From positions 24,353,175-24,417,174 of the forward strand of contig NC_092677.1 of NCBI RefSeq assembly GCF_964355755.1: a stretch of 64,000 nucleotides of DNA. The letters run 5' to 3'. Below, piece by piece: positions 1,681 to 58,616 of this stretch. How positions within the stretch are numbered: position 1 is the first letter of the stretch; every line of letters begins with the position of its first letter. A program made the position numbers and the translations under genes. This DNA comes from Antedon mediterranea (taxonomy: Eukaryota; Animalia; Echinodermata). The notes beneath the pieces are model-generated. The model was not told the origin of the DNA. It saw nothing but the letters and a program-made list of their open reading frames with translations, and did no database searches.

Positions 1681-2488
1681 AGAATACATCACTTATAAAA
1701 ACAACATACCTACCTATATGTAGGCGTAACTATTTTCATTCTATAATTAATATTACAAAATACATTTTATTATCTCTCCGCGCGGCGGCCATCCCACTAC
1801 TATACTACGTGTACTCAAACGGAACCGCCCAGGAAAAACCCTAATTGTTGACAACAACAGATCGAGAGAGGGGGAGGGGGAGGGGGAGAGCAGCCACAAA
1901 TAAATTGAATGTCTAGGGCGCCACCATGCGGGTACGATGGATGAGTTTAAAAAAATGAAGACGCAACGTGTACGTCACGGCCAAGCCCACCACACGCCCA
2001 CAAAAAACAAAAGCGCGAAATATTTAGCGCCCTCTATTAATATGTTTATTATTAGAATACACATGAATGAGTAGGCATGTTTGATGTGATAAAAACTGAT
2101 GTTGAGGTTGTACGTTGCGTATTATTTAACAATCACAAGGAAGTAAAAACAATAAAATAAGGTAACCAAAACAGTACTGAAAAATTGGACAGTAAGTTAA
2201 CTAATAATAGAGCCTAGCAAGGCCTAATAATAATAGGCTGGTAGGTATAGATAGTAGCTTTGGCCAGGCCTGGTGTGTACAGTGTTACTGTTATAGGCAG
2301 TGTACTGTTAGTAAAACTAAAAGTGGTTCAGAAATTGTTAAAATTGGCCTACGCCTAGCTCTAACTCAAGAGGCCAAAACAATGTACAGGAAGTAAGTAT
2401 TCTCCACCCACACCAATCAATTTAAACATAACATATACAGTAAATATATCATGCTTTTTTCAGGTTTAATATTGTATAAACAAATTTA

Positions 2489-22860: not shown

Positions 22861-25800
22861 ATGTTCATCTTTAAAGACGTAAGAATACTAGTACTAGGCC
22901 TAGTAATAGTACTATTGCCATTCTGTCTCACAAATAAAGTCAAACCTGGTATGTATTAAATGCATTTAAAATTTAGAACTAAAGTGACTGCTTAAACATG
23001 AACTATCATCACTATCTAAGTAGGCCTGTGTCTGAATAATCATGGGCAATGTCAGATATTTTAGATACTATTATCTGTGGGACCGTCTTCTCACAGTAGG
23101 TTGGTGATCATGGACATTCATCTATTTCTGCATTCTTATAATAACTATATCTTTTGTTCATACTTTATGTTGGGTCATTTTTTTTTACTAATTAATACTG
23201 TACTGTGTAAAACATAGATGTTTCGGTTTTTGCCGATTGTTCTCAGGTTTTGTGAAATTGTCAAAACTTTATACGGATAAACCGCATCTCAAGGTATTCA
23301 ATCTTGTTTCAAAGTGTTTTTCTGTTAGTGTTCAAATGTCCACGATACAACAGTATTGACAACACGTAACATTTTTTTTTAGTGTTTGGTTCTGTTAGTG
23401 TTAAAGTTTCCATCATACAACAGTGTTGAAAGCGCGTAGCATTTTGTTAGTGTTTGAATACACGATCAGGTTTTTGCATCGTGTTTGATTCTGTCAGTGT
23501 CCATGTTTCCACCATACAACAGTGTTGAATACATGATCAGGTTTTTGCATCGTTATTGGTTCTGTCAGTGTCCATGTTTCCACCATACAGCAGTGTAACA
23601 TTAATCTGTATCCTGTGGTATGCAGCTGCAATAACGTATCACTGTGTGCGTGTATGGCGAAGTCTATACGTTACCGGAAACAGTCGAATTCCTTTGTTTT
23701 AAAGAAAATCTTATTTTGGAACTTATTAAATTATTATTAACAAGGCCATAATATGCATGGATGCAGTCGCGTGCTCAAGTTAGTGTTTACCAACCAACCG
23801 ACATAGCGAGTGACTCAAAAGCTAAGCATTAAACTATTGGGAACTCATGATACAATACATTCCAATTAATTGTTTATGATGCTTTCTGTTTTCTTTATTT
23901 TTAATTTTAAGGTTTTAACCATATTTTATGTTGAATATAAAATTTTAAGAGGATAATTATTAATAACAGTTTTGCAAATTTGCCATCTATGATTTATTCT
24001 AAAAGTTGTATTCATGTAAATATAATGTTTGATTTACATACCTACTGTACAAAATAATTTTGGACTGATGTTTTTTTTTTATTGGTGAACATCGACGAAT
24101 AGTTCTGTATATAGACTTCACAAACAACATTTTCAGTTTATCCACAGGGTTGCTATGACCACATATATAGGCCTACTGGTGTAGTTTGTTCGCCATGGAA
24201 CATGAATACAGTTGCAGAACTCATTAAGTATAATAAACAAAGCACCATATTAATATTGTAAGTATTGCAGTGTACGTACGGTTGCTTTTAAGTAAATACA
24301 GAATATACTTTGTTTATTTCTCAATGTAAAGGGTATTGCTAAACCGAAAACCTTCAAAAACATAGCAAACCCCATCGAACCAACATAAACAAGTAGAATT
24401 AATTTCGTCACTTTGACGAATTGTAGGTGATCATTGTGATAACAAAATATATTAAAATATGAGCGCAAAGCGTTGTAGTGCTGCTGAGTTGTGTATTGTG
24501 TAGTCTAGTCATAGAATATATAAAGTATATAATATACACGGGTCCCATAGTATGTTCTAATGGCATGATGACGTTATCCAAATCAAAGAAAAAAAATTAC
24601 AGAATTGTAAATCGTCCAAAATAGACCATGATTTATTACTGAGATTTTTTCAAAAACACGGGTGAAATGGACTGATACTGCTAAGGGAGAGAAATGCCTA
24701 ATAAAGTCTACTTTAGTTATAAAATAAGAAAAAAAAGCATTGTATTTTGTAATTATCACACTCTAGGCCCTTAACGTTTATTTTCTCTTCGTTTAGCAAT
24801 TATTTACCGAGAAGCACAAAATGATGTATACAAGTGTTATTTTCAGAAATCTTAATAAATGTGATAATTTATTGTAAAGCGTTTACAACCAGCCTATATT
24901 TAAATTAAATTTCAATAATCTAAAAACGGTTCATTGTTATATTTAGCAGCATAGTAGGCCTGTGGTGTAATGAATAAAACAAGAATACACACAATATGTA
25001 TACATAGATATGTGTGCTTTTTTAATGAAATCAAATCGTTCAATCAAATAACAGGAAATATTCAGGTGTTATATAGTATGGTATAATTAATACTATACCT
25101 ATACCTATGAAGTTAATCATAATGTTATTTACTGCACAATATACACATATTTAAAAAAAAATATGTTAAAACTAGCACATAAATATAGGTCATGCTTATT
25201 GTGTCATATTCTAAATTAAATTCGTCAATATTAAACTGTATGAAAGCAAACTTGTGCCTGAAACTGAAAAGGCTTTCCGTTGCAAAATGTAAATTAAATG
25301 GTAAGTTTAGCAATTATTTGCTAAGCACAAAATGATGTATAAAAGTGTTATTGTCAGAAATATTAATAAAGATGATAATTCATTGCAAAGCATCCACATC
25401 AGTCTATATTTTATCATTTGAATAATTAATAAAATGTTGATTGTCTTTAAATTGTTTAATGAATTATTTAGCAGCACAATATGGTATAATTAATAAAACT
25501 TTCATATTTCACAACTTTTAAGGGAATTGCAAAACAATCAAATTATTGCATTGACAGAGAATGCATTCGCTGGTTTGAAATCATTGGAATGGCTGTAAGT
25601 GACATTGTTTATGTTTACATATCTATGACGTTAATCATAATGTTATTTACTGCACAATATACAAATATTTACAAAACAATATGTTAAAGTAAACTTGAGC
25701 CTGAAACTGTAAAGGCTTTCCGTTGCAAAATGTAAATTAACTAGTAAGTTTAGCAATTATTTGCTGATATGCTCACAATGATGTATAAAAATGTTATTGT

Positions 25801-28800
25801 CAGAAATCTTAATAAAGGTGATATATTCATTGCAAAGCATCGACATCAACCTATATTTATTAATTTGAATTAAAAATAAATGTTGATTGTCTTGTAATTG
25901 TTTAATGAATAATTTAGCAGCATAATATGGTATAATTAATAAAACGATATCTTTTACATTTTACAACTTTGAAGGAGGTTGGAGAACAATCAAATTAGTA
26001 CATTGACAGAGAATGCATTCGCTGGTTTGGAATCATTGGAATGGCTGTAAGTGACGTTGTTTATGTTTACATACCTATGACGTTAATCCTAATGTTATTT
26101 ACTGCACAATATACACATATTTAAAAACAATATTTTAAAACTAGTACATATACATATAGGTCAATGCTTATTGTGTCATATTCAAAATGAAATTCCTCAA
26201 TACTGTATGAAAGAAAACTTGAGCCTGAAACTGTAAAGGCTTTACGTTGCCAAAATGGTGAGTTTAACAATTATTTGCTGATAAGCACACAATGATGTAT
26301 AAAAAGTGTTATTGTCAGAAATATTAATAAATGTGATAATTCATTGCTAAAAATCCAAATCAGTCTATATTTATTCATTTGAATAATTAAAAAAGAATGT
26401 TGATTGTCTTTTAATTGTTTAATGAATTATTTAGCAGTATAGTATGTAGTATCATGAATACAACTTTGTTTTATATTTCACAACTTTGAAGGTACTTGAA
26501 AAACAATCAAATTAGTACATTGACAGCCAATGCATTCGCCGGTTTGAAATCATTGGAAAGCCTGTAGGTGACGTTGTTTATGTTTACCTATGACGTTAAT
26601 AAAAATGTTATTTACTCCACAATATACACATATTTTATACACAATGGAGAGTTTAGCAATTATTTTCTGTTGTGTTATTGTCAGAAATCTTAATAAAGGT
26701 GATAATTCATTGCAAAAAATCCATATCAGTCTATATTTAATTTATATTTCAATAATCTAAAAATGGTTCATTGTTATATTTAATAAGTATTTAGCAGCAT
26801 AGTAGGCCTGTGGTGTAATGAATAAAACAACAATACATACAATATGTATACATAAATATATGATGTGTGCTTTTTTAATGAAATCAAATCATTCAATCAA
26901 ATAACAGGAAATATTCAGGTGTTATTGGTATAATTAATAAAAACTATCTTTTACATTTCATAATTTTGAAGGTGGTTGTTCAACAATCAAATTAGTACAT
27001 TGGCAGAGAATGCATTTGCTGGTTTGGAATCATTGGAAAGGCTGTAAGTGTTATTCTTCATCATATCCACATACGTACTTTCATATATATCATGTTTTAT
27101 ACACATTCAAGCTAGGGGGCATATACACATTCAAGCTAGGGGGCCTACACACATTGTACACACATCGTAACCTTATTAGGTGAAATACTTTTGTCGAAAT
27201 GGATTATTTTCATAGTAATTCATTGTTAGAAAGAGTAAATCAAACTTAGTATTTTATTAGTTTGTTACCAAACTAGTTAACAAATGTAACATTAGAGGAA
27301 TATTTAGCAGTGTATAGCATATGAATCAAATTTAAGTAAGTAAGCTATAAGATTTAATAAGAAATTGTTAATTTTATTCGTATTTATTCATTCATTTCGA
27401 CACACACTAGCCCTGGTATTTATTCTTACAAAGTTATTACAATTTAATCTCACTCTTATTTGCTGTGACGAAATAACTCTCCTCATATACACACCTATTT
27501 AAAAACAATATTTTAAAACTAGTACATAAATATAGGCCAATTAAATTGTGTCATATTCAAAATAAAATTCCTCAACTGTATAGCAAATTTGAGCCTGAAA
27601 CTGTAAAGGCTTTATGAAAATAAGTAAATAGCCTTTACATACCCTATTTTAAATTCTAAAAAGTCTGAAAAAATCTTCAAGTGCAGTCGTGATCGATTAG
27701 TGTATTTGGTAAACTGTATCAAGTGAATTTGTGCCTGAAACTGACAAGGCTTTCCGTTGTAAAATGTAAATTAAATTGTGAGTTTAGCAATTATTTGCTG
27801 GTATTCACACAATGTATTATTGCTATATTGTCAGAAATATTATTAGGTAAAGTTAATTTATGGCCTATATTATTTTAATTAATCCAATAATCTAAAAATC
27901 AGTCATTGTCTTCAATTGAATATTTGGCTAAAACTATATCTTTTACATTTAACAACTTTTAAGGGGTTTGCACTACAATCAAATTAGTACATTGACAGCC
28001 AATACATTCGCTGGTTTGGAATCGTTGAAAGAACTGTAAGTGACATTGATTATGTTTACATACCTATGACGTTAATCCTAATGTTATTTACTCCACAATA
28101 TACACATATTTAAAAAACAATATTTTTAAACTAGTACATAAATATATAGGCCAATGCTTATTGTGTCATATTCAAAATGAAATTCGTCAATATTAAACTG
28201 TATGAAAGCAAACTTGAGCCTGAAACTGTAAAGGCTTTCCGTTGCAAAATGTAAATTAAATGGCGAGTTTAGCAATTATTTTCTGTTAATCACACAATGA
28301 TGTATAAATGTGTTATTTTCAGAAATCTTAATAAATGTGATAATTCATTGCAAAGCATCCACATCAGTCTATATTTATTTATTTTAATAACTAAAAAAAT
28401 GTTGATTGTCTTTTAATTGTTTAATGAATTATTTAGCAGCACAATATGGTATAATTAATAAAACTGTCATATTTCACAACTTTTAAGGTGGTTACAAAGC
28501 AATCAAATTAGAACATTGACAGAGAATACATTCGCTGGTTTGGAATCATTGGAAGGACTGTAAGTGACATTGATTATGTTTACATACCTATGACGTTAAT
28601 CCTAATGTTATTTACTCCACAATATACACATATTTAAAAAACAATATTTTTAAACTAGTACATAAATATATAGGCCAATTCTTATTGTGTCCTATTCAAA
28701 ATGAAATTCCTCAATATTAAACTGTATGAAAGCAAACTTGAGCCTGAAACTGTAAAGGCTTTCCGTTGCAAAATGTAAAATAAATGGCGAGTTTAGCAAT

Positions 28801-31800
28801 TATTTTCTGTTAATCACACAATGATGTATACATGTGTTATTGTCAGAAATCTTAATAAATGTGATAATTCATTGCAAAAAATCCACATCAGTCTATATTT
28901 AATTTATATTTCAATAATCTAAAAATGGTTCATTGTTATATTTAATAAGTATTTAGCAGCATAGTAGGCCTGTGGTGTAATGAATAAAACAACAATACAT
29001 ACAATATGTGATGTAAGATATATGATGTGTGCTTTTTTAATGAAATCAAATCGTTCAATCAAATAACAGGAAATATTCAGGTGTTATATAGTATGGTATA
29101 ATTAATAAAACTATCTTTTACATTTCATAATTATGAAGGTGGTTGTACAGCAATCAAATTAGTACATTGACAGCCAATGCATTCGCTGGTTTGGAATCAT
29201 TGAAATACCTGTAAGTGACGTTGTTTATGTTTACCTATGACGTTAATTATAATGTTATTTACTGCACAATATATACATATTTAAAAACAATAGTTTAAAA
29301 CTAGTACATACAAATAGGCCAATGCTTATTGTGTCATATTCAAAATGAAATTCTCCTATATTAAACTGTATGAAAGCAAACTTGAGCATGAAACTGAAAA
29401 GGCTTTCCGTTACAAAATGTAAATTAAATTGTGAGTTTAGCAATTATTTGCTGATATGCTCACAATGATTGTATAAATGTGTTATTGTCAGAAATATTAA
29501 TAAAGGTGATAATTGATTGCAAAGCATTAACATCATCCTATATTTATTTATTTGAATAATTAAAAAAAATGTTGATTGTCTTTTAATTGTTTAATGAATT
29601 ATTTAGCAGTATAATATGGTATAATTAATAAAACTTTCATATTTCACAACTTTGAAGGAGGTTGCAGTACAATCAAATTAGAACATTGACAGAGAATGCA
29701 TTCGCTGGTTTGAAATCATTGGATAGTCTGTAAGTGACGTTGTTTATGTTTACATACGTATGACATTAATCCTAATGTTATTTACATATAAAAAATCCAC
29801 ATCAGTCTATATTTAATTTATATTTCAATAATCTAAAAATGGTTCATTGTTATATTTAATAAGTATTTAGCAGCATAGTAGGCCTGTGGTGTAATGAATA
29901 AAACAACAATACACACAATATGTATACATAGATATATGGTGTGTGCTTTTTTAATGAAGTAAAATCATTCAATCAAATAACATGAAATATTCAGGTGTTA
30001 TATAGTATGGTATAATTAATAAAAACTATCTTTTACATTTCATAATTTTGAAGGTGGTTGCAAAACAATCAAATTAGTACATTGACAGAGAATGCATTTG
30101 CTGGTTTGGAATCATTGAAAGACCTGTAAGTGTTATTCTTCATCATATCCACATACGTACCTCCATACTGTATATCATGTTATATACACATTACACACAT
30201 TGTACATATACATCGTAACCTTGGTTACTTTTGTCAACATGGATTATTTTCATAATAATTCATTATTGAGTAAATCAAAATTATAGTATTTATTAGTTTG
30301 TTACCAATATTAGGAATATTTAGCATTGTTATAGCCTGTGAATCAAATTTAAGTTAGTTAGCTATAAGATTTAAAAAGACATTTTTAATTTTATTCGTAT
30401 TTATTCATTCATTTTGACACACCAGCCCTGGTTTTTATACTTACAAAGTTATTACAATTTAATCTCACTCTTATTTGTTGTGACGAAATACCTCTCCTCA
30501 AAGAATTGACCAATACATTAACTATTAGCTTAATTAAACAGGTATTTACAGGACAACAATATAACTACTATTGATCAAGGCGCCTTCTCTGTTTTTGCCT
30601 CATCACTTGGAAAACTGTAAGTAATTTATTCTGAAATTCATATGCAGTTTCTCGAAATAATTAATCACTTCAATTAGGTACTTTTCTTATGCTATAAACA
30701 TGTTATCCAAGAAAAAACGGTATCAACAGGATAGGTTTACATACATTTTTTAAACATGGGTAAATTTTTTCATTCATTATTGTATCTGGCTCATTCCATG
30801 GAGTTGAACATGAGAAAGCATTTTAAAAGTTAATCTAACAAGTAGAACAAACAACTTTTTATATAATTAAACATATAAGTAGAAGGATTATCTTAAGTGC
30901 CGACGGTGATAAAAATATTATTTTGAGACTACATTGCATCAGTTAGACACTAAATTGATTGTGGTATACCTTCATTAATACGATATCACTAAAACGACAT
31001 CGGTGCTATCCAAATGAGACATACTCGTAGATATTTAGTTACATGTGAGCTACACTCATTGGCACTGATTTGATATTTGTTTCCATATTTATTTTTTTTT
31101 ACAGAGACATCAGACGCAACAATTTACAAGTTTACAGAGAAAGTACTTTTGAAGAATTGAAATATATAACAGAATTGTAAGTATTATGTCGGATTTAGAA
31201 ATTCTTTATATTCATTAAATGATATTTTTATTTTGTTTTAACACAGTTACCAATTCCACATGCATGCCGACAGTGGCCCAACAAAATTGTTTATGTAGGC
31301 CTACAGCTTTTAGGTTATTTTAAATTTCTCCTTCACTTCTATCTTTTAAATTGGTCGTACACGTCATACTTTTACTATACGAGTAGATTTGATTGGCTGT
31401 AAAGCAGTCGTTATTCCACCTGTTATAGAACTAAAACCATTATAAACATTGTTATAGTAGGCTACTACTGTATTTAACAACTTCCATTAAATTCAATTGT
31501 TTTTTTAACATAGATATTCAGATTTGTTTCGTCTCTGTTGTGTTGTTGGAGAAATTGAAGTATGTGAGCCTACTGATGCTTTTGCGTCCTGCGCTGACTT
31601 ACTAAAGAGAGAAGTTCTTAGGATATTGATGATAGTTATTGGACTGTCATCTTTTATCGGTAACTTGATTGTCATCATATCGCGAAGGATAAACAAAGAA
31701 AATAGGTCTACAGTTGATTCTATTCTACTCACTAATCTTGCCGCGGCTGACTTGCTGATGGCAATTTATTTGCTGATCATCGCAGGTGCAGATATACACT

Positions 31801-32498
31801 ACAGAGGAAGGTACGCGAAGGTTGCCAGCGAATGGAAAAACAGCTTTCTCTGCTCTTTTTCCGGTGCTATTTCAACACTGTCTGGGCAGTGTTCCGTGTC
31901 AACCTTGATGGTTATGAGTATTAACCGTGCTATAAACATCGTCTATCCATTCAGCACCAAACGGCTCAAACGTACGAAATGCAAAATTATCATCGGTATT
32001 GCTTGGCTGGTATGGCTTTTTGTTAGTTTCCTTCCACTGGTAGCTAACAAGTCACATGTCGGCATACCATATTTTGGCGAGAACTACTACGGAAAACAAA
32101 GTGTGTGTCTCGCGTTGCCACTAACACGACATCGATTACCAGGCTGGGAGTACGCCACGGCCATATTCATCGCATTCAATGGCTTGGGTTTTTTTGTTAT
32201 CACAGCAAGTTATTTGACGATTTTCCTCTCCGTTAAGAGATCTGCAATCACGGCTAACAGAATGCAGAGACGAGAAGAGGAAATCAAAATGGCCGTGAAA
32301 CTAGGGTTTATTGTTTTCACCGATTTCTGTTGCTGGTTTCCCATCATAGTAATGGGAATTTGTTCAGAGATGGAGTGGTGGAGAATTCCTGATGATATAT
32401 ACGTTTGGGCAGCAACATTTATAATTCCCATTAACTCATCAGTAAACCCATATCTTTACACAATTATTTATATGTGTAAAAGCGAGCGTAGGCCATAA
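22861..32498 (+). CDS. LRR-containing GPCR copy 1 (RXFP/GRL101-like 7TM), apparently intact, ~674 aa. Exons 22861-22948, 23247-23293, 24148-24257; variable LRR exons 25523-25594, 25975-26046, 26492-26563, 26972-27043, 27964-28035, 28488-28559, 29139-29210, 29658-29729, 30054-30125; fixed LRR exons 30542-30616, 31105-31176; hinge+7TM 31514-32498
   Basis: Signal peptide MFIFKDVRILVLGLVIVLLPFCLT; Cys cap GCYDHIYRPTGVVCSPW; LRRs xLxxNQISTLTENAFAGLESLxxL; hinge CC...CEPTDAFASCADLL; TM motifs GNLIVI, NLAAADLLMAIYL, CLALP, IVFTDFCCWFPI, PINSSVNPYLY. All GT-AG and in phase (2025 nt). Exons 1-2 are less certain than the rest. Confidence 0.88.
23310..23597. repeat. Intronic minisatellite, ~60-70 bp unit (also ~36300-36580 and ~50130-50415)
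   Basis: Repeated TTCTGT(T/C)AGTGT...TCCA(C/T)CATACAACAGTGTTGAA units. Confidence 0.75.
24790..30130 (+). repeat. Array of exon+intron LRR cassettes, copy 1 (9 exons)
   Basis: ~400-1000 bp units sharing intron blocks (GAGCCTGAAACTGTAAAGGCTTTCCGTTGCAAAATG; TTTAGCAATTATTT; GGTATAATTAATAAAAC), each ending in a 72-nt exon. Confidence 0.95.
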
Positions 32499-35400: not shown

Positions 35401-37779
35401 ACAAATATTATTTGTATTTAAAAAACATGAAAAATGAATAATAATTAAAAAAAAATACTTTTTTTAGATCTAATTTTTTGAAAAATTATTATGTGACATT
35501 AAAATGGCATATTAAAAAAAAATATTTAAAACATTATTTTTTCAGGGGGACAATAATCTTTATATTAAAAAAATTAGTTACAGCAGTAAAATACACTCTA
35601 TACATGATGACGTGTGAAGCTCCACAAATCGAAATAATGGATTATCAAAAGAAAAACAATGTTCAATAATTAAATCATATTACACCCACAAACAATAATT
35701 GAATGCATCTGGTAATGTGATTTAAGTGATTGTCATCTTAAAAATGAATGAAGAAATCATAAAATAATAAGACCTATGCATTATACTAGAGAGCTTTTCA
35801 CAAACTAACGGTTCATTTCTATTACCGATTTAATACGTATGTAAGAAGATGTTCATCTTTAAAGACGCAAGAATACTAGTACTAGGCCTAGTACTAGAAC
35901 TATTGCCATTCTGTCTCACAAATAAAGCCAGACCTGGTATGTATTAAATGCATTTAAAATTTAGAACTAAAGTGACTGCTTAAACATGAACTATCATCAC
36001 TATCTAAGTAGGCCTGTGTCTGAATAATCATGGGCAATGTCAGATATTTTAGATACTATTATCTGTTCTGGGACCGTCTTCTCACATCTATTTCTGCATT
36101 CTTATAATGTATATAATAATATTATATAATATATATATAATGTTCATACTTTATGTTGGGTCATTTTTTTTACCAATTAATACTGTAACTGTGTAAAACA
36201 TAGATGTTTCGGTTTTTGCCGATTGTTCTCAGGTTTTGTGAAATGTCAAAACTTTATACGGATAAACCGCATCTCAAGGGATTCAATCTTGTTTCAAAGT
36301 GTTTTTCTGTTAGTGTTCAAATGTCCACGATACAACAGTATTGACAACACGTAACATTTTTTTTAGTGTTTGGTTCTGTTAGTGTTAAAGTTTCCATCAT
36401 ACAACAGTGTTGAAAGCGCGTAGCATTTTGTTAGTGTTTGAATACACGATCAGGTTTTTGCATCGTGTTTGATTCTGTCAGTGTCCATGTTTCCACCATA
36501 CAACAGTGTTGAATACACGATCAGGTTTTTGCATCGTGTTTGGTTCTGTCAGTGTCCATGTTTCCACCATACAGCAGTGTAACATTAATCTGTATCCTGT
36601 GGTATACAGCCGCAATAACGTATCACTGTGTGCGTGTATGGCGAAGTCTATACGTTACCGGACACAGTCGAATTCCTTTGTTTTAAAGAAAATCTTATTT
36701 TGGAACTTATTAAATTATTATTAACAAGGCCATGTGCATGGCTGCTGTCGCTTGCTCAAGTTAGTGTTTACCAACCAACCGACCGACATAGTGAGCGCGT
36801 TGCACGCGACTCAAAAGCTAAGCATTAAACTATGGGGAACTCATGATACAATACATTCCAATTAATTGTTTATGATGCTTTCTGTTTTCTTTATTTTTAA
36901 TTTTAAGGTTTTAACCATATTTTATGTTGAATATAAAATTTTAAGAGGATAATTATTAATAACAGTTTTGCAAATTTGCCATCTATGATTTATTCTAAAA
37001 GTTGTATTCATGTAAATATAATGTTTGATTTATACATACCTACTGTACAAAATAATTTTGGACTAATGTTTTTTTTTATTGGTGAACATCGACGAATAGT
37101 TCTGTATATAGACTTCACAAACAACATTTTCAGTTTATCCACAGGGTTGCTTTGAACACATATATCCTGGTTTAGTTTGTTCGACATGGAACATGAATAC
37201 AGTTGCAGAACTCATTAAGTATAATAAACAAAGCACCATATTATCATTGTAAGTATTGCAGTGTACGTACGGTTGCTTTTAAGTAAATACAGAACATACT
37301 TTGTTTATTTCTCAATGTAGAGGGTATTGCTAAACCGAAAACCTTCACAAACATAGCAAACCCCATCGAACCAACATAAACAAGTAGAATTAATTTCGTC
37401 ACTTTGACGAATTGTAGGTGATCATTGTGATAACAAAATATATTAAAATATGAGCGCAAAGCGTTGTAGTGCTGCTGAGTTGTGCCTATTGTGTAGTCTA
37501 GTCATAGAATATATAACGTATATAATATACACGGGTCCCATATATGTTCTAATGGCATGATGACGTTATCCAAATCAAAGAAAAAAAATTACAGAATTGT
37601 AAATCGTCCAAAATAGACCGTGATTTATTACTGAGATTTTTTCAAAAACACGGGTGAAATGGACTGATACTGCTAAGGGAGAGAAATGCCTAATAAAGTC
37701 TACTTTAGTTATAAAATAAGAAAAAAAGCATTGTATTTTGTAATTCTCACACTCTAGGCCCTTAACGTTTATTTTCTCT

Positions 37780-40700
37780 TCGTTTAGCAATTATTTACCG
37801 AGAAGCACAAAATGATGTATACAAGTGTTATTTTCAGAAATCTTAATAAATGTGATAATTTATTGTAAAGCGTTTACAACCAGCCTATATTTAAATTAAA
37901 TTTCAAAAATCTAAAAACGGTTCATTGTTATATTTAGCAGCATAGTAGGCCTGTGGTGTAATGAATAAAACAACAATACACACAATATGTATACATAGAT
38001 ATGTGTGCTTTTTTAATGAAATCAAATCGTTCAATCAAATAACAGGAAATATTCAGGTGTTATATAGTATGGTATAATTAATAAAACTATCTTTTACATT
38101 TCATAATTATGAAGGTGGTTGTACAGCAATCAAATTAGTACATTGACAGCCAATGCATTCGCTGGTTTGGAATCATTGAAATACCTGTAAGTGACGTTGT
38201 TTATGTTTACCTATGACGTTAATTATAATGTTATTTACTGCACAATATATACATATTTAAAAACAATAGTTTAAAACTAGTACATACAAATAGGCCAATG
38301 CTTATTGTGTCATATTCAAAATGAAATTGTCCTATATTAAACTGTATGAAAGCAAACTTGAGCCTGAAACTGTAAAGGCTTTCCGTTGCAAAATGTAAAT
38401 TAAATGGCGAGTTTAGCAATTATTTTCTGTTAATCACACAATGATGTATAAATGTGTTATTTTCAGAAATCTTAATAAAGGTGATAATTCATTGCAAAAA
38501 ATCCACATCAGTCTATATTTATTCATTTTAATAATTAAAAAAATGTTGAATGTATTTTAATTGTTTAATGAATTATTTAGCAGTATAATATGGTATAATT
38601 AATAAAACTGTCATATTTCACAACTTTTAAGGTGGTTGCAAGGCAATCAAATTAGTACATTGACAGCCAATACATTCGCTGGTTTGGAATCATTGGAAGA
38701 ACTGTAAGTGACATTGATTATGTTTACATACCTATGACGTTAACCGTAATGTTATTTACTGCACAATATACACACATTTAAAAACATTATTTTAAAACTA
38801 GTACATAAATATAGGCCAATGCTTATTGTGTCATTATTCAAAATGAAATTCGTCAATATTAAACTGTATAAAAGCAAACTTGAGCCTGAAACTGTAAAGG
38901 CTTTCCGTTTCAAAATGTAAATTAAATGGTGAGTTTAGCAATTATTTTCTGTTAATCACACAATGATGTATAAATGTGTTATTGTCAGAAATCTCAATAA
39001 ATTAATTCATTGCAAAAAATCCACATCAGTCTATATTTATTCATTTTAATAATTAAAAAAATGTTGAATGTATTTTAATTGTTTAATGAATTATTTAGCA
39101 GTATAATATGGTATAATTAATAAAACTGTCATATTTCACAACTTTTAAGGTGGTTGCAAGGCAATCAAATTAGTACATTGACAGCCAATACATTCGCTGG
39201 TTTGGAATCATTGGAAGAACTGTAAGTGACATTGATTATGTTTACATACCTATGACGTTAACCGTAATGTTATTTACTGCACAATATACACACATTTAAA
39301 AACATTATTTTAAAACTAGTACATAAATATAGGCCAATGCTTATTGTGTCATTATTCAAAATGAAATTCGTCAATATTAAACTGTATAAAAGCAAACTTG
39401 AGCCTGAAACTGTAAAGGCTTTCCGTTTCAAAATGTAAATTAAATGGTGAGTTTAGCAATTATTTTCTGTTAATCACACAATGATGTATAAATGTGTTAT
39501 TGTCAGAAATCTCAATAAATTAATTCATTGCAAAAAATCCACATCAGTCTATATTTAATTTATATTTCAATATTCTAAAAATGGTTCATTGTTATATTTA
39601 ATAAGTATTTAGCAGCATAGTAGGCCTGTGGTGTAATGAATAAAACAACAATACATACAATATGTGATGTAAGATATATGATGTGTGCTTTTTTAATGAA
39701 ATCAAATCGTTCAATCAAATAACATGAACTTTTCAGGTGTTATATAGTATGGTATAATTAATAAAAACTATCTTTTACATTTCATAATTTTGAAGGCAGT
39801 TGTACAACAATCAAATTAGTACATTGACAGCCAATGCATTTGCTGGTTTGGAATCATTGAAAGAACTGTAAGTGTTATTCTTCATCACATCCACATACGT
39901 ATTTCCATATATATCATGTTTTATACACATTACACATATTTAAAACTAGTACATAAATATAGGACAATGCTTATTGTGTCATATTCTAAATTAAATTCCT
40001 CAATATTAAATTGTATGAAAGCAAACTTGAGCCTGAAACTGTAAAGGCATTCCGTTGCAAAATGTAAATTAAATGGCGAGTTTAGCAATTATTTGCTGAT
40101 ATGCTCATAATGATTGTATAAATGTGTTATTGTCAGAAATCTTAATAAATGTGATAATTCATTGCAAAAAATCCACATCAGTCTATATTTAATTTATATT
40201 TCAATAATCTAAAAATGGTTTATTGTTATATTAAATAAGTATTTAGCAGCATAGTAGGCCTGTGGTGTAATGAATAAAACAACAATACACACAATATGTA
40301 TACATAGATATATGGTGTGTGCTTTTTTAATGAAATCAAATCGTTCAATCAAATAACATGAAATATTCAGGTGTTATATAGTATGGTATAATTAATAAAA
40401 ACTATCTTTTACATTTCATAATTATGAAGGTGGTTGGAAAACAATCAAATTAGTACATTGACAGCCAATGCATTCGCTGGTTTGGAATCATTGAAATACC
40501 TGTAAGTGACGTTGTTTATGTTTACCTATGACGTTAATTATAATGTTATTTACTGCACAATATATACATATTTAAAAACAATAGTTTAAAACTAGTACAT
40601 ACAAATAGGCCAATGCTTATTGTGTCATATTCAAAATGAAATTGTCCTATATTAAACTGTATGAAAGCAAACTTGAGCCTGAAACTGTAAAGGCTTTCCG

Positions 40701-43700
40701 TTGCAAAATGTAAATTAAATGGCGAGTTTAGCAATTATTTTCTGTTAATCACACAATGATGTATAAATGTGTTATTTTCAGAAATCTTAATAAAGGTGAT
40801 AATTCATTGCAAAAAATCCACATCAGTCTATATTTATTCATTTTAATAATTAAAAAAATGTTGAATGTATTTTAATTGTTTAATGAATTATTTAGCAGTA
40901 TAATATGGTATAATTAATAAAACTGTCATATTTCACAACTTTTAAGGTGGTTGCAAGGCAATCAAATTAGTACATTGACAGCCAATACATTCGCTGGTTT
41001 GGAATCATTGGAAGAACTGTAAGTGACATTGATTATGTTTACATACCTATGACGTTAACCGTAATGTTATTTACTGCACAATATACACACATTTAAAAAC
41101 ATTATTTTAAAACTAGTACATAAATATAGGCCAATGCTTATTGTGTCATTATTCAAAATGAAATTCGTCAATATTAAACTGTATAAAAGCAAACTTGAGC
41201 CTGAAACTGTAAAGGCTTTCCGTTTCAAAATGTAAATTAAATGGTGAGTTTAGCAATTATTTTCTGTTAATCACACAATGATGTATAAATGTGTTATTGT
41301 CAGAAATCTCAATAAATTAATTCATTGCAAAAAATCCACATCAGTCTATATTTATTCATTTTAATAATTAAAAAAATGTTGAATGTATTTTAATTGTTTA
41401 ATGAATTATTTAGCAGTATAATATGGTATAATTAATAAAACTGTCATATTTCACAACTTTTAAGGTGGTTGCAAGGCAATCAAATTAGTACATTGACAGC
41501 CAATACATTCGCTGGTTTGGAATCATTGGAAGAACTGTAAGTGACATTGATTATGTTTACATACCTATGACGTTAACCGTAATGTTATTTACTGCACAAT
41601 ATACACACATTTAAAAACATTATTTTAAAACTAGTACATAAATATAGGCCAATGCTTATTGTGTCATTATTCAAAATGAAATTCGTCAATATTAAACTGT
41701 ATAAAAGCAAACTTGAGCCTGAAACTGTAAAGGCTTTCCGTTTCAAAATGTAAATTAAATGGTGAGTTTAGCAATTATTTTCTGTTAATCACACAATGAT
41801 GTATAAATGTGTTATTGTCAGAAATCTCAATAAATTAATTCATTGCAAAAAATCCACATCAGTCTATATTTAATTTATATTTCAATATTCTAAAAATGGT
41901 TCATTGTTATATTTAATAAGTATTTAGCAGCATAGTAGGCCTGTGGTGTAATGAATAAAACAACAATACATACAATATGTGATGTAAGATATATGATGTG
42001 TGCTTTTTTAATGAAATCAAATCGTTCAATCAAATAACATGAACTTTTCAGGTGTTATATAGTATGGTATAATTAATAAAAACTATCTTTTACATTTCAT
42101 AATTTTGAAGGCAGTTGTACAACAATCAAATTAGTACATTGACAGCCAATGCATTTGCTGGTTTGGAATCATTGAAAGAACTGTAAGTGTTATTCTTCAT
42201 CACATCCACATACGTATTTCCATATATATCATGTTTTATACACATTACACATATTTAAAACTAGTACATAAATATAGGACAATGCTTATTGTGTCATATT
42301 CTAAATTAAATTCCTCAATATTAAATTGTATGAAAGCAAACTTGAGCCTGAAACTGTAAAGGCATTCCGTTGCAAAATGTAAATTAAATGGCGAGTTTAG
42401 CAATTATTTGCTGATATGCTCATAATGATTGTATAAATGTGTTATTGTCAGAAATCTTAATAAATGTGATAATTCATTGCAAAAAATCCACATCAGTCTA
42501 TATTTAATTTATATTTCAATAATCTAAAAATGGTTTATTGTTATATTAAATAAGTATTTAGCAGCATAGTAGGCCTGTGGTGTAATGAATAAAACAACAA
42601 TACACACAATATGTATACATAGATATATGGTGTGTGCTTTTTTAATGAAATCAAATCGTTCAATCAAATAACATGAAATATTCAGGTGTTATATAGTATG
42701 GTATAATTAATAAAAACTATCTTTTACATTTCATAATTATGAAGGTGGTTGGAAAACAATCAAATTAGTACATTGACAGCCAATGCATTCGCTGGTTTGG
42801 AATCATTGAAATACCTGTAAGTGACGTTGTTTATGTTTACCTATGACGTTAATTATAATGTTATTTACTGCACAATATATACATATTTAAAAACAATAGT
42901 TTAAAACTAGTACATACAAATAGGCCAATGCTTATTGTGTCATATTCAAAATGAAATTCTCCTATATTAAACTGTATGAAAGCAAACTTGAGCATGAAAG
43001 TGAAAAGGCTTTCCGTTACAAAATGTAAATTAAATTGTGAGTTTAGCAATTATTTGCTGATATGCTCACAATGATTGTATAAATGTGTTATTGTCAGAAA
43101 TCTTAATAAATGTGATAATTCATTGCAAAGCATCCACATCAGCCTATATTTATTCATTTTAATAATTAAAAAAATGTTGATTGTCTTTTAATTGTTTAAT
43201 GAATTATTTAGCAGTATAATATGGTATAATTAATCAAACTTTCATATTTCACAACTTTGAAGGGGGTTGTTCAACAATCAAATTAGAACATTGACAGAGA
43301 ATGCATTCGCTGGTTTGGAATCATTGGAAATTCTGTAAGTGACGTTGATTATGTTTACAAACCTATAAAGTTAATCATAATGTTATTTACTCCACAATAT
43401 ACACAGATTAAAAAACAATATTTTTAAACTAGTACATAAATATATAGGCCAATGCTTATTGTGTCATATTCTAAATGAAATTCCTCAACATTAAACTGTA
43501 TGAAAGCAAACTTGAGCCTGAAACTGTAAAGGCTTTCCGTTTCAAAATGTAAAATAAATTGTGAGTTTAGCAATTATTTTCTGTTAATCACACAATGATG
43601 TATAAATGTGTTATTTTCAGAAATCTTAATAAATGTGATAATTCATTGCAAAAAATCCACATCAGTCTATATTTAATTTATATTTCAATAATCTAAAAAT

Positions 43701-43990
43701 GGTTCATTGTTATATTTAATAAGTATTTAGCAGCATAGTAGGCCTGTGGTGTAATGAATAAAACAACAATACACACAAAATGTATACATAGATATATGGT
43801 GTGTGCTTTTTTAATGAAGTCAAATCATTCAATCAAATAACATGAAATATTCAGGTGTTATATAGTATGGTATAATTATTAAAAACTATCTTTTACATTT
43901 CATAATTTTGAAGGTTGTTGCAAAACAATCAAATTAGTACATTGACAGAGAATGCATTTGCTGGTTTGGAATCATTGAAAGACCTGTAAG
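37780..43990 (+). repeat. Array of exon+intron LRR cassettes, copy 2 (11 exons), with a 2315-bp four-cassette duplication and a 518-bp single-cassette duplication
   Basis: Exon starts 38632/40947, 39150/41465, 39796/42111 and 40430/42745 differ by 2315 and encode identical peptides; 38632/39150 differ by 518. Confidence 0.95.
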
Positions 43991-45350
43991 TGTTATTCTT
44001 CATCATATCCACATACGTACCTCCATACTGTATATCATGTTATATACACATTACACACATTGTACATATACATCGTAACCTTATTTTGTTACTTTTGTCA
44101 ACATGGATTATTTTCATAATAATTCATTATTGAGTAAATCAAAATTATAGTATTTATTAGTTTGTTACCAATATTAGGAATATTTAGCCTGTGAATCAAA
44201 TTTAAGTTAGTAAGCTATAAGATTTAAAAAGAAATTTTTAATTTTATTCGTATTTATTCATTCATTTTGACACACCAGCCCTGGTTTTTATTCTTACAAA
44301 GTTATTACAATTTAATCTCACTCTTATTTGTTGTGACGAAATACCTCTCCTCATAGAATTGACCAATATACATTAACTATTAGCTTAATTAAACAGGTAT
44401 TTACAGGACAACAATATAACTACTATTGATCAAGGCGCCTTCTCTGTTTTTGCCTCATCACTTGGAAAACTGTAAGTAATTTATTCTGAAATTCATATGC
44501 AGTTTCTCGAAATAATTAATCACTTCAATTAGGTACTTTTCTTATGCTATAAACATGTTATCCAAGAAAAAGCGGTATCAACAGGATAGGTTTACATACA
44601 TTTTTTAAACATGGGTAAATTTTTACATTCATTATTGTATCTGGCTCATTCCATGGAGTTGAACATGAGAAAACATTTTAAAAGTTAACAACTTTTTATA
44701 TAATTAAACATATAAGTAGAAGGATTATCTTAAGTGCCGACGGTGATAAAAATATTATTTTGAGACTACATTGAATCAGTTAGACACTAAATTGATTGTG
44801 GTATACCTTCATTAATACGATATCACTAAAACGACATCGGTGCTATCCAAATGAGACATATTCGTAGATATTTAGTTACATGTGAGCTACACTCATTGAC
44901 ACTGATTTGATATTTGTTTCCATATTTTTTTTTTTTTTACAGAGACATCAGACGCAACAATTTACAAGTTTACAGAGAAAGTACTTTTGAAGAATTGAAA
45001 TATATAACAGAATTGTAAGTATTATGTCGGATTTAGAAATTCTTTATATTCATTAAATGATATCTTTATTTTGTTTTAACACAGTTACCAATTCCACATG
45101 CATGCCGACAGTGGCCTAACAAATTGTTTATGTAGGCCTACAGCTTTTAGGTTATTTTAAATTTCTCCTTCACTTCTATCTTTTAAATTGGTCGTACACG
45201 TCATACTTTTACTATACGAGTAGATTTGATTGGCTGTAAAGCAGTTGTTATTCCACCTGTTATAGAACTAAAACCATTATAAACATTGTTATAGTAGGCT
45301 ACTACTGTATTTAACAACTTCCATTAAATTCAATTGTTTTTTTAACATAG

Positions 45351-46335
45351 ATATTCAGATTTGTTTCGTCTCTGTTGTGTTGTTGGAGAAATTGAAGTAT
45401 GTGAGCCTACTGATGCTTTTGCGTCCTGCGCTGACTTACTAAAGAGAGAAGTTCTTAGGATATTGATGATAGTTATTGGACTGTCATCTTTTATCGGTAA
45501 CTTGATTGTCATCATATCGCGAAGGATAAACAAAGAAAATAGGTCTACAGTTGATTCTATTCTACTCACTAATCTTGCCGCGGCTGACTTGCTGATGGCA
45601 ATTTATTTGCTGATCATCGCAGGTGCAGATATACACTACAGAGGAAGGTACGCGAAGGTTGCCAGCGAATGGAAAAACAGCTTTCTCTGCTCTTTTTCCG
45701 GTGCTATTTCAACACTGTCTGGGCAGTGTTCCGTGTCAACCTTGATGGTTATGAGTATTAACCGTGCTATAAACATCGTCTATCCATTCAGCACCAAACG
45801 GCTCAAAGGTACGAAATGCAAAATTATCATCGGTATTGCTTGGCTGGTATGGCTTTTTATTAGTTTCCTTCCACTGGTAGCTAACAAGTCACAGGTCGGC
45901 ATACCATATTTTGGCGAGAACTACTACGGAAAACAAAGTGTGTGTCTCGCGTTGCCACTAACACGACATCGATTACCAGGCTGGGAGTACGCCACGGCCA
46001 TATTCATCGCATTCAATGGCTTGGGTTTTTTTGTTATCGCAGCAAGTTATTTGACGATTTTCCTCTCCGTTAAGAGATCTGCAATCACGGCTAACAGAAT
46101 GCAGAGACGAGAAGAGGAAATCAAAATGGCCGTGAAACTAGGGTTTATTGTTTTCACCGATTTCTGTTGCTGGTTTCCCATCATAGTAATGGGAATTTGT
46201 TCAGAGATGGAGTGGTGGAGAATTCCTGATGATATATACGTTTGGGCAGCAACATTTATAATTCCCATTAACTCATCAGTAAACCCATATCTTTACACAA
46301 TTATCTATATGTGTAAAAGCGAGCGTAGGCCATAA
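45351..46335 (+). CDS. Hinge + 7TM terminal exon of LRR-GPCR copy 2 (open)
   Basis: ORF 45361..46335 differs from copy 1 at only 4 of 324 aa (R>G, V>I, H>Q, T>A). Confidence 0.9.
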
Positions 46336-49657: not shown

Positions 49658-52600
49658 ATGTTCATCTTTAAAGACGTAAGAATACTAGTACCAGGCCTAG
49701 TAATAGTACTATCGCCATTCTGTCTCACAAATAAAGTCAAACCTGGTATGTATTAAATGCATTCAAAATTTAGAACTTAAGTGACTGCTTAAACATGAAC
49801 TATCATCACTATCTAAGTAGGCCTGTGTCTGAATAATCATGGGCAATGTCAGATATTTTAGATACTATTATCTGTTCTGGGACCGTCTTACCCAGTACCG
49901 TTTTGATCGTACGATTAATCGGGAAACCACCTCACGACATCTATTTCTGCATTCTTATAATAACTATATCTTTTGTTCATACTTTATGTTGGGTCATTCT
50001 TTTTTTACTAATTAATACTGTACTGTGTAAAACAGATGTTTCTGTTTTTGCCGATTGTTCTCAGGTTTTGTGAAATTGTCAAAACTTTATACGGATAAAC
50101 CGCATCTCAAGGTATTCAATCTTGTTTCAAAGTGTTTTTCTGTTAGTGTTCAAATGTCCACGATACAACAGTATTGACACAAGACGTAACATTTTTTTTT
50201 TAGTGTTTGGTTCTGTTAGTGTTAAAGTTTCCATCATACAACAGTGTTGAAAGCGCGTAGCATTTTGTTAGTGTTTGAATACACGATCAGGTTTTTGCAT
50301 CGTGTTTGATTCTGTCAGTGTCCATGTTTCCACCATACAACAGTGTTGAATACACGATCAGGTTTTTGCATCGTGTTTGGTTCTGTCAGTGTCCATGTTT
50401 CCACCATACAGCAGTGTAACATTAATCTGTATCCTGTGGTATACAGCCGCAATAACGTATCACTGTGTGCGTGTATGGCGAAGTCTATACGGTACCGGAC
50501 ACAGTCGAATACCTTTGTTTTAAAGAAAATCTTATTTTGGAACTTATTAAATTATTATTAACAAGGCCATATGCATGGATGCAGTCGCGTGCTCAAGTTA
50601 GTGTTTACCAACCAACCGACACAGTGTTGCACGCGACTCAAAAGCTAAGCATTAAACTATGGGGAACTCATGATACAATACATTCCAATTAATTGTTTAT
50701 GATGCTTTCTGTTTTCTTTATTTTTAATTTTAAGGTTTCAACCATATTTTATGTTGAATGTAAAATTTTAAGAGGATAATCATTAATAACAGTTTTGCAA
50801 ATTTGCCATCTATGATTTATTCTAAAAGTTGTATTCATGTAAATATAATGTTTGATTTATACATACCTACCGTACAAAATAATTTTGGACTAATGTTTTT
50901 TTTATTGGTGAACATCGACGAATAGTTCTGTATATAGACTTCACAAACACAATTTTCAGTTTATCCACAGGGTTGCTCAGGCCAAAATTTATTTCCTGGT
51001 GTAGTTTGTTCACCATGGAACATGAAAACAGTTGCAGAACTCATTAAGTATAATAAACAAAGCACCATATTAACATTGTAAGTATTGCAGTGTACGTACG
51101 GTTGCTTTTAAGTAAATACAGAACATACTTTGTTTATTTCTCAATGTAGAGGGTATTGCTAAACCGAAAACCTTCACAAACATAGCAAACCCCATCGAAC
51201 CAACATAAACAAGTAGAATTAATTTCGTCACTTTGACGAATTGTAGGTGATCATTGTGATAACAAAATATATTAAAATATGAGCGCAAAGCGTTGTAGTG
51301 CTGCTGAGTTGTGCCTATTGTGTAGTCTAGTCATAGAATATATAACGTATATAATATACACGGGTCCCATATATGTTCTAATGGCATGATGTAGTTATCC
51401 AAATCAAAGAAAAAAAATTACAGAATTGTAAATCGTCCAAAATAGACCATGATTTATTACTGAGATTTTTTCAAAAACACGGGTGAAATGGACTGATACT
51501 GCTAAGGGAGAGAAATGCCTAATAAAGTCTACTTTAGTTATAAAATAAGAAAAAAAGCATTGTATTTTGTAATTCTCACACTCTAGGCCCTTAACGTTTA
51601 TTTTCTCTTCGTTTAGCAATTATTTACCGAGAAGCACAAAATGATGTATACAAGTGTTATTTTCAGAAATCTTAATAAATGTGATAATTTATTGTAAAGC
51701 GTTTACAACCAGCCTATATTTAAATTAAATTTCAAAAATCTAAAAACGGTTCATTGTTATATTTAGCAGCATAGTAGGCCTGTGGTGTAATGAATAAAAC
51801 AACAATACACACAATATGTATACATAGATATGTGTGCTTTTTTAATGAAATCAAATCGTTCAATCAAATAACAGGAAATATTCAGGTGTTATATAGTATG
51901 GTATAATTAATACTATACCTATACCTATGAAGTTAATCATAATGTTATTTACTGCACAATATACACATATTTTTAAAAAAATATGTTAAAACTAGCACAT
52001 AAATATAGGCCATGCTTATTGTGTCATATTCTAAATTAAATTCGTCAATATTAAACTGTATGAAAGCAAACTTGTGCCTGAAACTGAAAAGGCTTTCCGT
52101 TGCAAAATGTAAATTAAATGGTAAGTTTAGCAATTATTTGCTAAGCACAAAATGATGTATAAAAGTGTTATTGTCAGAAATCTTAATAAATGTGATAATT
52201 CATTGCAAAGCATCCACATCAGTCTATATTTTATCATTTGAATAATTAATAAAATGTTGATTGTCTTTAAATTGTTTATTGAATTATTTAGCAGCACAAT
52301 ATGGTATAATTAATAAAACTTTCATATTTCACAACTTTTAAGGGAATTGCAAAACAATCAAATTATTGCATTGACAGAGAATGCATTCGCTGGTTTGAAA
52401 TCATTGGAATGGCTGTAAGTGACATTGTTTATGTTTACATATCTATGACGTTAATCATAATGTTATTTACTGCACAATATACAAATATTTACAAAACAAT
52501 ATGTTAAAGTAAACTTGAGCCTGAAACTGTAAAGGCTTTCCGTTGCAAAATGTAATTAACTAGTGAGTTTAGCAATTATTTGCTGATATGCTCACAATGA

Positions 52601-58600: not shown

Positions 58601-58616
58601 CGAGCGTAGGCCATAA
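49658..58616 (+). pseudogene. LRR-GPCR copy 3 with premature stop. Exons 49658-49745, 50065-50111, 50971-51077; 7 variable LRR exons (starts 52343, 52915, 53431, 54392, 55026, 55544, 56195); 56678-56752, 57224-57295, 57632-58616
   Basis: TGG>TGA at 58131-58133 in TM4 splits the 7TM ORF into 57642..58133 and 58221..58616. The signal peptide also has L>P and L>S changes. Confidence 0.8.
54032..54346. mobile_element. 315-bp palindromic insertion unique to copy 3
   Basis: Absent from the matching introns of copy 2. Long hairpin (ACAAATAATGAATGTTT...AAAGGTTATATCAAC / GTTGATATAACCTTT...AAACATTCATTATTTGT); AGGTGTTATATAGTAT repeated at 54016 and 54331. Confidence 0.85.

Follow-up and report, generated by a model that had tools for sequence, protein, structure and literature searches.

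LGRs are known as conserved receptors of hormones; GRL101 is an orphan receptor. RXFP1/2 and LGR3/4 (type C1) and GRL101 (type C2) combine an LRR solenoid, a short Cys hinge and a rhodopsin-type 7TM domain. In the part of PMC11863921 cited here, the definition of a type C LGR includes at least one LDLa module, and in the cited part of the survey by Veenstra (10.1101/2021.04.15.440029) ambulacrarians have a single gene for each of the types LGR3, LGR4 and GRL101. The ROCO LRR-GTPases of Ectocarpus show selection at exon sites 15, 17, 19 and weakly 20 (PMC3341825, sections cited), which, counted on the published consensus, are x3, x5, x7 and x8 of LxxLxLxxN; these GTPases act inside brown-algal cells and have no relationship to the Antedon receptors described below. 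The VLRs of lampreys and hagfish, as far as the cited sections of PMC3900441 describe them, consist of an N-cap and 24-residue LRR modules with variable concave residues and a variable cap loop, and are assembled somatically from donor cassettes.

The 64-kb window, i.e., the whole stretch of Antedon mediterranea DNA that was analyzed, contains three tandem LRR-GPCR genes (copies 1, 2 and 3) with 9, 11 and 7 cassette exons, respectively. These genes share the architecture of the type C LGRs, but differ from them in having an N-cap in place of LDLa, a variable number of repeats and a concave face that is probably under selection, and they belong to a multi-gene crinoid clade in contrast to the single genes of the Veenstra survey. 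With the cited account of the ROCO genes they have in common that each repeat is encoded by a single 72-nt exon, that exons are shuffled both inside a gene and from gene to gene, and that paralogues are near-identical beyond the LRR domain, whereas a strand lies within one exon in Ectocarpus and is split by an intron in Antedon. The module plan of the VLRs is likewise shared, but the Antedon cassettes are exons of a complete germline gene with a 7TM domain. Our literature search found no report of the 72-nt exon and three-site pattern in a GPCR.

Organization of the locus

The features of the locus are as follows.

22861..22948, + strand: copy 1 putative signal-peptide exon with an ATG, a hydrophobic stretch and a GT donor (reading frame open through the model)
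24137..24257, + strand: copy 1 N-cap exon with two Cys and a variable loop (AG/GT; its final codon supplies x3 for the first strand)
25080..25140, + strand: cassette intron pieces fused without an intervening exon (second instance at 51900)
25523..30125, + strand: copy 1, nine 72-nt LRR exons (AG/GT), starting at 25523, 25975, 26492, 26972, 27964, 28488, 29139, 29658 and 30054
30542..30616, + strand: copy 1 75-nt constant LRR exon, identical across the three copies
31105..31176, + strand: copy 1 72-nt constant LRR exon (AG/GT), identical across the three copies
31514..32498, + strand: copy 1 hinge and 7TM exon (PF00001, E 1e-30)
35849..46335, + strand: copy 2, 708-aa model with an open frame and 11 cassette exons at 38115-43985
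49658..58616, + strand: copy 3, with seven cassette exons at 52343-56266

The 27 cassette exons are 72 nt long, symmetric and near-identical, each encoding one LRR; all have AG/GT bounds and lie in frame within their gene models, including the nine that the original prediction had placed in copy 1. Pfam LRR_8 matched one copy 1 cassette exon at E 0.0018, below the cut-off because the exon is short. The predicted models of copies 1 and 2 have open frames of 662 aa and 708 aa that join the LRR ectodomain in frame to the 7TM domain. The hinge and 7TM exon is 99.4-99.5% identical among the three copies, and in this assembly that of copy 3 carries a premature stop at about 58131-58133. Reads of run X1 (presumed RNA) also fall on introns. 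A hidden coding exon inside the cassette intron was rejected, as indels break it in several copies, and Rfam and tRNA scans of the window gave no matches. The exonless intron fusion at 25080..25140 is likely a deleted cassette. No spare cassette exon, inverted or non-coding, was found outside the 27 on either strand of the window, unlike in Ectocarpus, where both kinds occur according to the cited sections of PMC3341825. Somatic assembly of the VLR type was rejected, since 27/27 cassettes are in-frame exons of complete models and no spare exon was present.

Relationship to type C receptors

The 7TM domain is of the rhodopsin class (PF00001, E 1.2e-30), and the best solved relative of the hinge and 7TM region is RXFP1 (E 6e-49), with a score of 170 bits vs 110 for LHCGR/FSHR and 93 for TSHR. 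The nearest database relatives bear the name GRL101-like, and we predict from the sequence that the genes encode type C/GRL101-like LRR-GPCRs, albeit ones that have neither the one or more LDLa modules of a type C LGR nor the multiple LDLa modules of GRL101 (type C2). An LDLa HMM built from 37 segments found no LDLa in the window (best match E 0.89) and recovered the positive controls P0008 and P0176 at 1e-26 and 1e-48. A quick tree (52 rows, with no C1 or type A rows) placed the genes inside a crinoid clade of 17 rows, the basal members of which have LDLa. The 7TM domain of P0155 from A. mediterranea is 95% identical, and its cassette framework and cassette-intron sequence are held in common with the window genes. 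P0155, P0003 and P0006 (A. mediterranea) and P0001 (Anneissia japonica) are automatic annotations; the database models of such relatives hold few cassettes, and P0155 begins in sequence that is intron in the window. No published description of their cassette arrays was found.

A conventional insulin/relaxin-type hormone receptor, amplified and now decaying, would be in line with RXFP1 as nearest solved structure, with the stop in copy 3, and with the signal peptides of copies 2 and 3, where charged or proline changes occur. We regard this as very improbable: LDLa is missing, a fixed hormone would conserve the concave face rather than diversify it, none of the 27 cassette exons has a stop or frameshift, and the amino acid is unchanged at 12/23 codons across all 15 distinct exons.

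Variation among the cassette exons

The original prediction held that variation in copy 1 is concentrated in five codons, and its residue lists match letter for letter: E,R,Y,W,G,W,W,R,W at codon 1; Q,E,K,F,H,Q,Y,Q,Q at codon 3; N,N,N,N,Y,S,S,Y,N at codon 4; E,E,E,E,K,E,K,D,K at codon 22; and W,W,S,R,E,G,Y,S,D at codon 23. The invariance of AATCAAATT and GGTTTG extends to 27/27 exons. Mean pairwise p is 0.456 at the five codons vs 0.074 at the other 18, far above the rest as claimed; however, codons 8, 9, 11, 12, 14 and 19 also change amino acid, and codon 12 (pN 0.31) is as variable as codons 4 (0.29) and 22 (0.27). Copy 1 contains six synonymous variants rather than about four, the two overlooked ones being in codons 3 and 23. 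Four true synonymous variants are located within the five variable codons, where a Nei-Gojobori pS of 0.54 derives from just 1.7 sites and path averaging. The aromatic richness noted earlier was confirmed as W/Y/F at 10/27 vs 8.1% in generic LRR proteins (the sole yield of a search with the LRR region of P0006); the exons, however, are not independent of one another.

The introns had been described as homogeneous, which was overstated: they are homologous mosaics of 324-920 nt, more variable than the framework codons (pairwise mean p 0.124, range 0.032-0.253 in 28 pairs, 4-48 gaps per pair). Multiple alignment gave a diversity of 0.17-0.24, inflated by forcing unrelated blocks together, and the pairwise values are the better ones. 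Compared with intron triplets, codons 1, 3 and 23 stand out (top 0-4%), whereas 27-47% of triplets are as variable as codons 4 and 22; the test is not significant if the five codons count as chosen post hoc (P 0.06-0.55).

Codons 23, 1 and 3 correspond to x3, x5 and x7 of LxxLxLxxN, and an intron interrupts every strand: x2-x3 come from one exon, and x5, x7 and x8 from the next. In a structure model of the relative P0003, of low confidence (mean pLDDT 40.1) and without side-chain exposure, strands start at x3 in 6/7, and a fold search with it returned generic LRR and LGR folds. The x3, x5 and x7 residues are predicted to face outward on the concave beta-sheet, and we infer that this surface binds a ligand. 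The relative P0006 has only two residue types at x5 in six repeats.

Probable selection at codons 23, 1 and 3

Positive selection had been proposed for all five codons; the proposal stood for codons 23, 1 and 3, only weakly for codon 4, and not for codon 22, which looks neutral. Codons 23, 1 and 3 have omega of about 8-12 with a posterior of 1.0, a value reached by no other codon. M1a/M2a comparison gave 2dL of 19.3 for the nine copy 1 exons and 37.0 for the 15 distinct exons, and fixed-site omega was 6.7-18.3 (2dL 19-58) in 12/12 settings; once double and triple changes were permitted, fixed-site 2dL was 14-34.

The variation might have arisen with no positive selection, the x codons being free, subject to codon-scale mutation or conversion hot spots, or carrying old variants from distant paralogues, with the framework held by purifying selection and conversion. 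Several observations lean this way. When the five codons received a separate synonymous rate, omega>1 was not significant in copy 1 (2dL 0.13-2.37), where omega = 1 fits equally well, and borderline in the 15 exons (2dL 2.84-6.44). Synonymous variants occur at codons 1, 3 and 23; runs X2-X4 contain alleles that the window lacks, indicating that outside donors exist; and the ratio of x5 to fixed codons was attained in up to 5/60 simulations under one setting. A regional mutation hot spot was nevertheless rejected: it fitted 3.1 and 8.4 lnL poorer than selection, the hot-spot rate in the joint model dropped to 0.97 (15 exons), and codons 2, 5, 6, 20 and 21, interleaved with the variable ones, do not have the high rate. 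We know of no process that would strike alternating codons matching outward strand positions, and old variants retained at x codons alone would themselves require selection. The 21 residue types observed at the top three codons were attained in 0/1,530 simulations of neutral gene conversion. In a subset of 98 of these the top omega was 4.9 and the top 2dL 13.9, vs 8.1 and 33.1 observed; the fixed-site test gave 10/98 false positives at the nominal threshold. An origin with no positive selection is unlikely. The signal survives the multi-nucleotide-change, hot-spot and neutral conversion tests, and codons 23, 1 and 3 are probably under diversifying selection.

Shuffling of cassette exons and divergence of the caps

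Judged from the sequence, shuffling has affected the cassette exons both inside single genes and across genes. Four gametes were present at 51/171 site pairs (Rm 5), the 24 exon junctions yield 14 different x3/x5/x7 triples, and identical cassette exons are common to different genes. Exons 2-5 and 6-9 of copy 2 lie in a repeated block identical at 1870/1870 bases, and copy 3 is chimeric, its 5' part resembling copy 1 and its 3' part matching copy 2 at 4223/4225 bases.

The N-cap exon resembles the P0006 cap (E 2e-4). Among the copies it varies by 6-10% and has in-frame 6- and 3-nt indels, whereas its flanking introns differ by 1.4-2.1%. Divergence is thus higher in this single-copy exon than in the introns beside it (P 0.003 to 6e-6), nearly all of the differences being amino-acid changes. 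The signal-peptide exon also exceeds the introns in 2/3 pairs (P 0.013, 0.0006), a divergence that is not explained by ligand selection.

Discussion

We propose, at roughly even odds, that these are shuffled-exon LRR-GPCRs with three codons under diversifying selection that likely track a changing non-self ligand, e.g., a microbial or parasite surface molecule; given selection, a ligand of this kind is slightly favored. The amino-acid divergence of the N-cap exon and the matching selected sites in Ectocarpus speak for the proposal, the stop in copy 3 and the two x5 residue types of P0006 against it. Unequal crossing-over and conversion would bring about gains, losses and exchanges of cassettes and hold their framework uniform, while selection would retain new residues at contact positions. 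Since each strand draws on two exons, an altered exon order would re-pair half-strands and create a new surface, and the near-constant hinge and 7TM region would deliver one fixed signal.

The same selection and shuffling could instead track an own-kind signal, such as a peptide pheromone, a protein for gamete or self-recognition, or a cue for chemosensation, which we consider possible though doubtful. Reproductive recognition proteins too evolve under positive selection, and the output here is a rhodopsin-class 7TM domain. The expression data found for GRL101-like receptors point to sensory organs, against a non-self reading, with transcripts enriched in the sensory tentacles of Acanthaster (PMC6267866) and of Charonia (PMC13403566); however, those receptors carry LDLa (Acanthaster) or have no reported diversification. 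Rapid repeat turnover, chimeric genes and a pseudogene copy fit the birth-and-death of candidate pathogen receptors described in the cited part of PMC3341825, and favor the non-self ligand.

Tentatively, crinoids may have remodeled a GPCR of the relaxin/GRL101 type as an immune-style receptor repertoire, with a constant 7TM domain and a VLR-like ectodomain whose strands are recombined in the germline across exon junctions and whose contact residues are selected, possibly multiplied by skipping of symmetric exons. The surprise is limited in that the site pattern itself is common among LRR receptors. If the proposal is true, a clade that has shed LDLa and evolves like a pathogen receptor would mean that a GPCR was put to use in variable recognition, in a convergence with VLRs and the ROCO proteins of algae that extends to the same three strand positions. 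The analysis also points to particular residues and to a compact family of genes that are testable in an understudied class of echinoderms.

Organization of the receptor genes and their cassette exons

The window contains three tandem copies of a predicted LRR-GPCR gene and, upstream of them, a small gene of another kind:

About 21,100–59,200: three tandem gene copies
2486–3752, + strand: small spliced cytochrome b5-like gene (exon 2486–2638 matches PF00173, E 1.3e-6; further exons assigned by eye)

In every copy, an N-cap exon follows a predicted signal exon, and an array of LRR exons (cassettes) is succeeded by two constant LRR exons and a single hinge-plus-7TM exon. The reading frames are open in copy 1 (662 aa) and copy 2 (708 aa), and that of copy 3 is interrupted by a stop at residue 453. 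There are 32 + strand matches to AATCAAATT, 27 of them within 72-nt exons bounded by AG/GT, and the arrays of copies 1, 2 and 3 hold 9, 11 and 7 such exons. These 27 exons comprise 15 distinct sequences; one amino acid is kept at 12 of the 23 whole codons, and 11 codons are variable.

The original prediction listed the copy 1 residues at codons 1, 3, 4, 22 and 23, and all five lists were exact. Differences in copy 1 reach p = 0.456 at these codons vs 0.074 at the other 18. Its description of neighboring codons and introns as homogeneous did not hold: codons 8, 9, 11, 12, 14 and 19 also change amino acid, and the eight copy 1 introns (324–920 nt), built as mosaics from a small number of block types, differ by a mean p of 0.124 with 4–48 gaps per pair (28 pairs). 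The synonymous variants in copy 1 number six rather than about four, and codons 3 and 23 account for two.

An 889-nt intron of copy 3 (53503–54391) has an upstream portion that could not be aligned to other cassette introns, and likely contains an insertion. When contigs from sequencing runs were matched against a cassette exon (30054–30125), runs X2–X4 yielded alleles missing from the 27 window exons, including changes at codons 8, 12, 16 and 17; therefore the other haplotype or loci elsewhere probably carry additional cassettes. Record 1 of run X1, matched to 30058–30127, is a 167-nt contig with 13 differences, LRR-like coding on both sides and no introns, which points to a spliced or intronless paralogue from this one contig.

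Evidence for codon selection and placement in the predicted structure

Published work describes the five x positions of LxxLxLxxN as variable, exposed and on the concave face (PMC3138743). Using our own MG94-type codon models on NJ trees, a fixed-site test with these positions specified in advance gave omega values of 6.7–18.3 and 2dL of 19–58 in 12 of 12 settings, and 2dL of 14–34 once double and triple changes were allowed. An M1a/M2a mixture, blind to sites, gave 2dL of 19.3 (9 exons) and 37.0 (15 exons), with a posterior of 1.0 only at codons 1, 3 and 23; codon 4 scored 0.34 and 0.09, and codon 22 below 0.05. Codons 1, 3 and 23 correspond to x5, x7 and x3, which alternate with leucines. 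Drawn at random from the 11 variable codons, three would all fall on x positions with P = 0.06, and would be exactly these three with P = 0.006. Compared with intron triplets, codons 1, 3 and 23 fall in the top 0–4% and codons 4 and 22 within the bulk; the five codons jointly gave P of 2e-5 to 0.003 if specified beforehand, and 0.06–0.55 if regarded as the best 5 out of all 23. Positive selection, proposed for five codons, is supported for 1, 3 and 23, weakly for 4 and not for 22. The cassette feature is real and was partly overstated, since it involves three codons rather than five and its introns are heterogeneous.

In a single-sequence structure model of the related protein P0003 (mean pLDDT 40.1, about 50–83 in the repeats), the strand starts at x3 in six of seven strands and at position 4 in the seventh, which places x2 (codon 22) outside the strand. 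The side-chain direction of the x residues follows established LRR geometry. W, Y or F occupies 10 of 27 copy 1 x3/x5/x7 positions vs 8.1% in 1,218 generic LRR-protein strands; counted as distinct site-residue types the share is 6/21 (P 0.005 vs 8.1%, 0.08 vs 3 in 20).

Recombination and mutation controls

Recombination among the cassettes is present: of the 171 pairings of biallelic sites outside the x positions, 51 have all four gametes, with Rm = 5. We simulated 1,530 arrays with conversion under 12 settings, with all 11 variable codons neutral. None of the 1,530 reached the 21 residue types of the top three codons. At realistic divergence, 0/510 neutral runs attained the nucleotide diversity of these codons. 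Doubling the divergence raised the share to at most 2% and quadrupling it to at most 26%, where the simulated fixed codons showed three to four times too much variation. The x5/fixed ratio was attained at best by 5/60 neutral runs of one setting. The fixed-site test proved too liberal, 10 of 98 neutral runs passing the nominal cut; the neutral maxima in those 98 runs were omega 4.9 and 2dL 13.9, and the observed 8.1 and 33.1 lie well above them.

A mutational hot spot in the strand region fitted more poorly than selection, with a joint-model rate of 1.9 (9 exons) or 0.97 (15 exons). Giving the five codons their own rate abolished significance in copy 1 (2dL 0.13–2.37) and left 2dL of 2.84–6.44 in the 15 exons; this own-rate model is the remaining weakness of the case for selection. 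The same outcome would also be expected if selected codons had deep ancestry under conversion.

Divergence outside the cassettes

The N-cap exon is unrepeated, and differs between copies at 7/115, 10/117 and 11/115 bases vs 1.4–2.1% in flanking introns. Its loop between two cysteines has in-frame indels between copies, and its last codon, x3 of the first strand, encodes three different residues across the copies. This divergence lends independent support to selection. The constant LRR exons are identical across copies, and the 7TM exon is 99.4–99.5% identical to that of copy 1. As a counterpoint, the signal exon too shows elevated divergence in two of the three copy pairs, which ligand selection leaves unexplained. 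The hydrophobic core encoded by the signal exons of copy 2 (35849–35936) and copy 3 (49658–49745) includes either a glutamate or a proline plus a serine, changes that may impair secretion.

Directly behind copy 3, at 59184–64000, units of roughly 0.4–1.8 kb are repeated in both orientations at 92–99.9% identity, a block that is either satellite-like or an assembly artefact. A short dispersed repeat (16230–16520 and about 14420–14640) looks tRNA-derived by eye; neither ARAGORN nor Rfam gave a match to it.

Family relationships

The 7TM region matches PF00001, and its nearest solved structure is RXFP1. The top database relatives are crinoid proteins labelled GRL101-like; P0155 of A. mediterranea is 95% identical, and cassette-intron sequence is also common to both, which makes an Antedon-like crinoid the likely source of the window. 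Residues 1–25 of annotated P0155 are 100% identical to a translated cassette intron (28701–28775); this probably reflects an error in the gene model and suggests that annotation overlooks cassette arrays.

In a quick tree of copies 1 and 2 with 50 of 262 relatives, picked among named matches, the window genes belong to a group of 13 rows that lacks LDLa (support 98) and is nested among 17 crinoid rows, of which the four basal ones have LDLa. An LDLa HMM matched both positive controls and nothing in the window, nor any of the 11 relatives in the 13-row group, several of which are N-terminally cut models where absence is less sure. Because LDLa defines type C LGRs in the accounts consulted (PMC11863921, PMC4079206), the window genes are not members in the strict sense, though descended from them by their 7TM. 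Single genes of these LGR types in crinoids are described by Veenstra (10.1101/2021.04.15.440029). A search of main texts, largely outside the subscription journals, gave no report of the crinoid clade holding the window genes, nor of a GPCR whose LRR exons are shuffled and under selection; receptor lists in the supplements of the cited papers may bear on this.

Exon shuffling and a proposed mechanism

Six exon types are letter-identical between genes, and one is present fourfold within copy 2, which also contains an exact 1,870-base duplication. Copy 3 is a copy-1-like 5′ part fused to a copy-2-like 3′ part, and an exon has been lost from one cassette. The 24 junctions produce 14 x3/x5/x7 triples. 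Comparable shuffling of 72-nt LRR exons is described for the Ectocarpus ROCO genes, with selection at x3, x5, x7 and weakly x8, the first three being the same motif positions as in the window genes (PMC3341825). VLRs likewise vary on the concave sheet, yet are somatically assembled (PMC3900441).

We propose that unequal crossing-over and conversion alter repeat number and order, and that new exon neighbors would create new strands, because the intron sits inside the strand. Judging from their symmetric phase, cassette exons could also be skipped in frame. Selection would then retain new contact residues, while the constant 7TM would do the signaling. As the putative ligand of such a receptor we favor a non-self molecule, roughly twice as probable as a pheromone, gamete or sensory cue.
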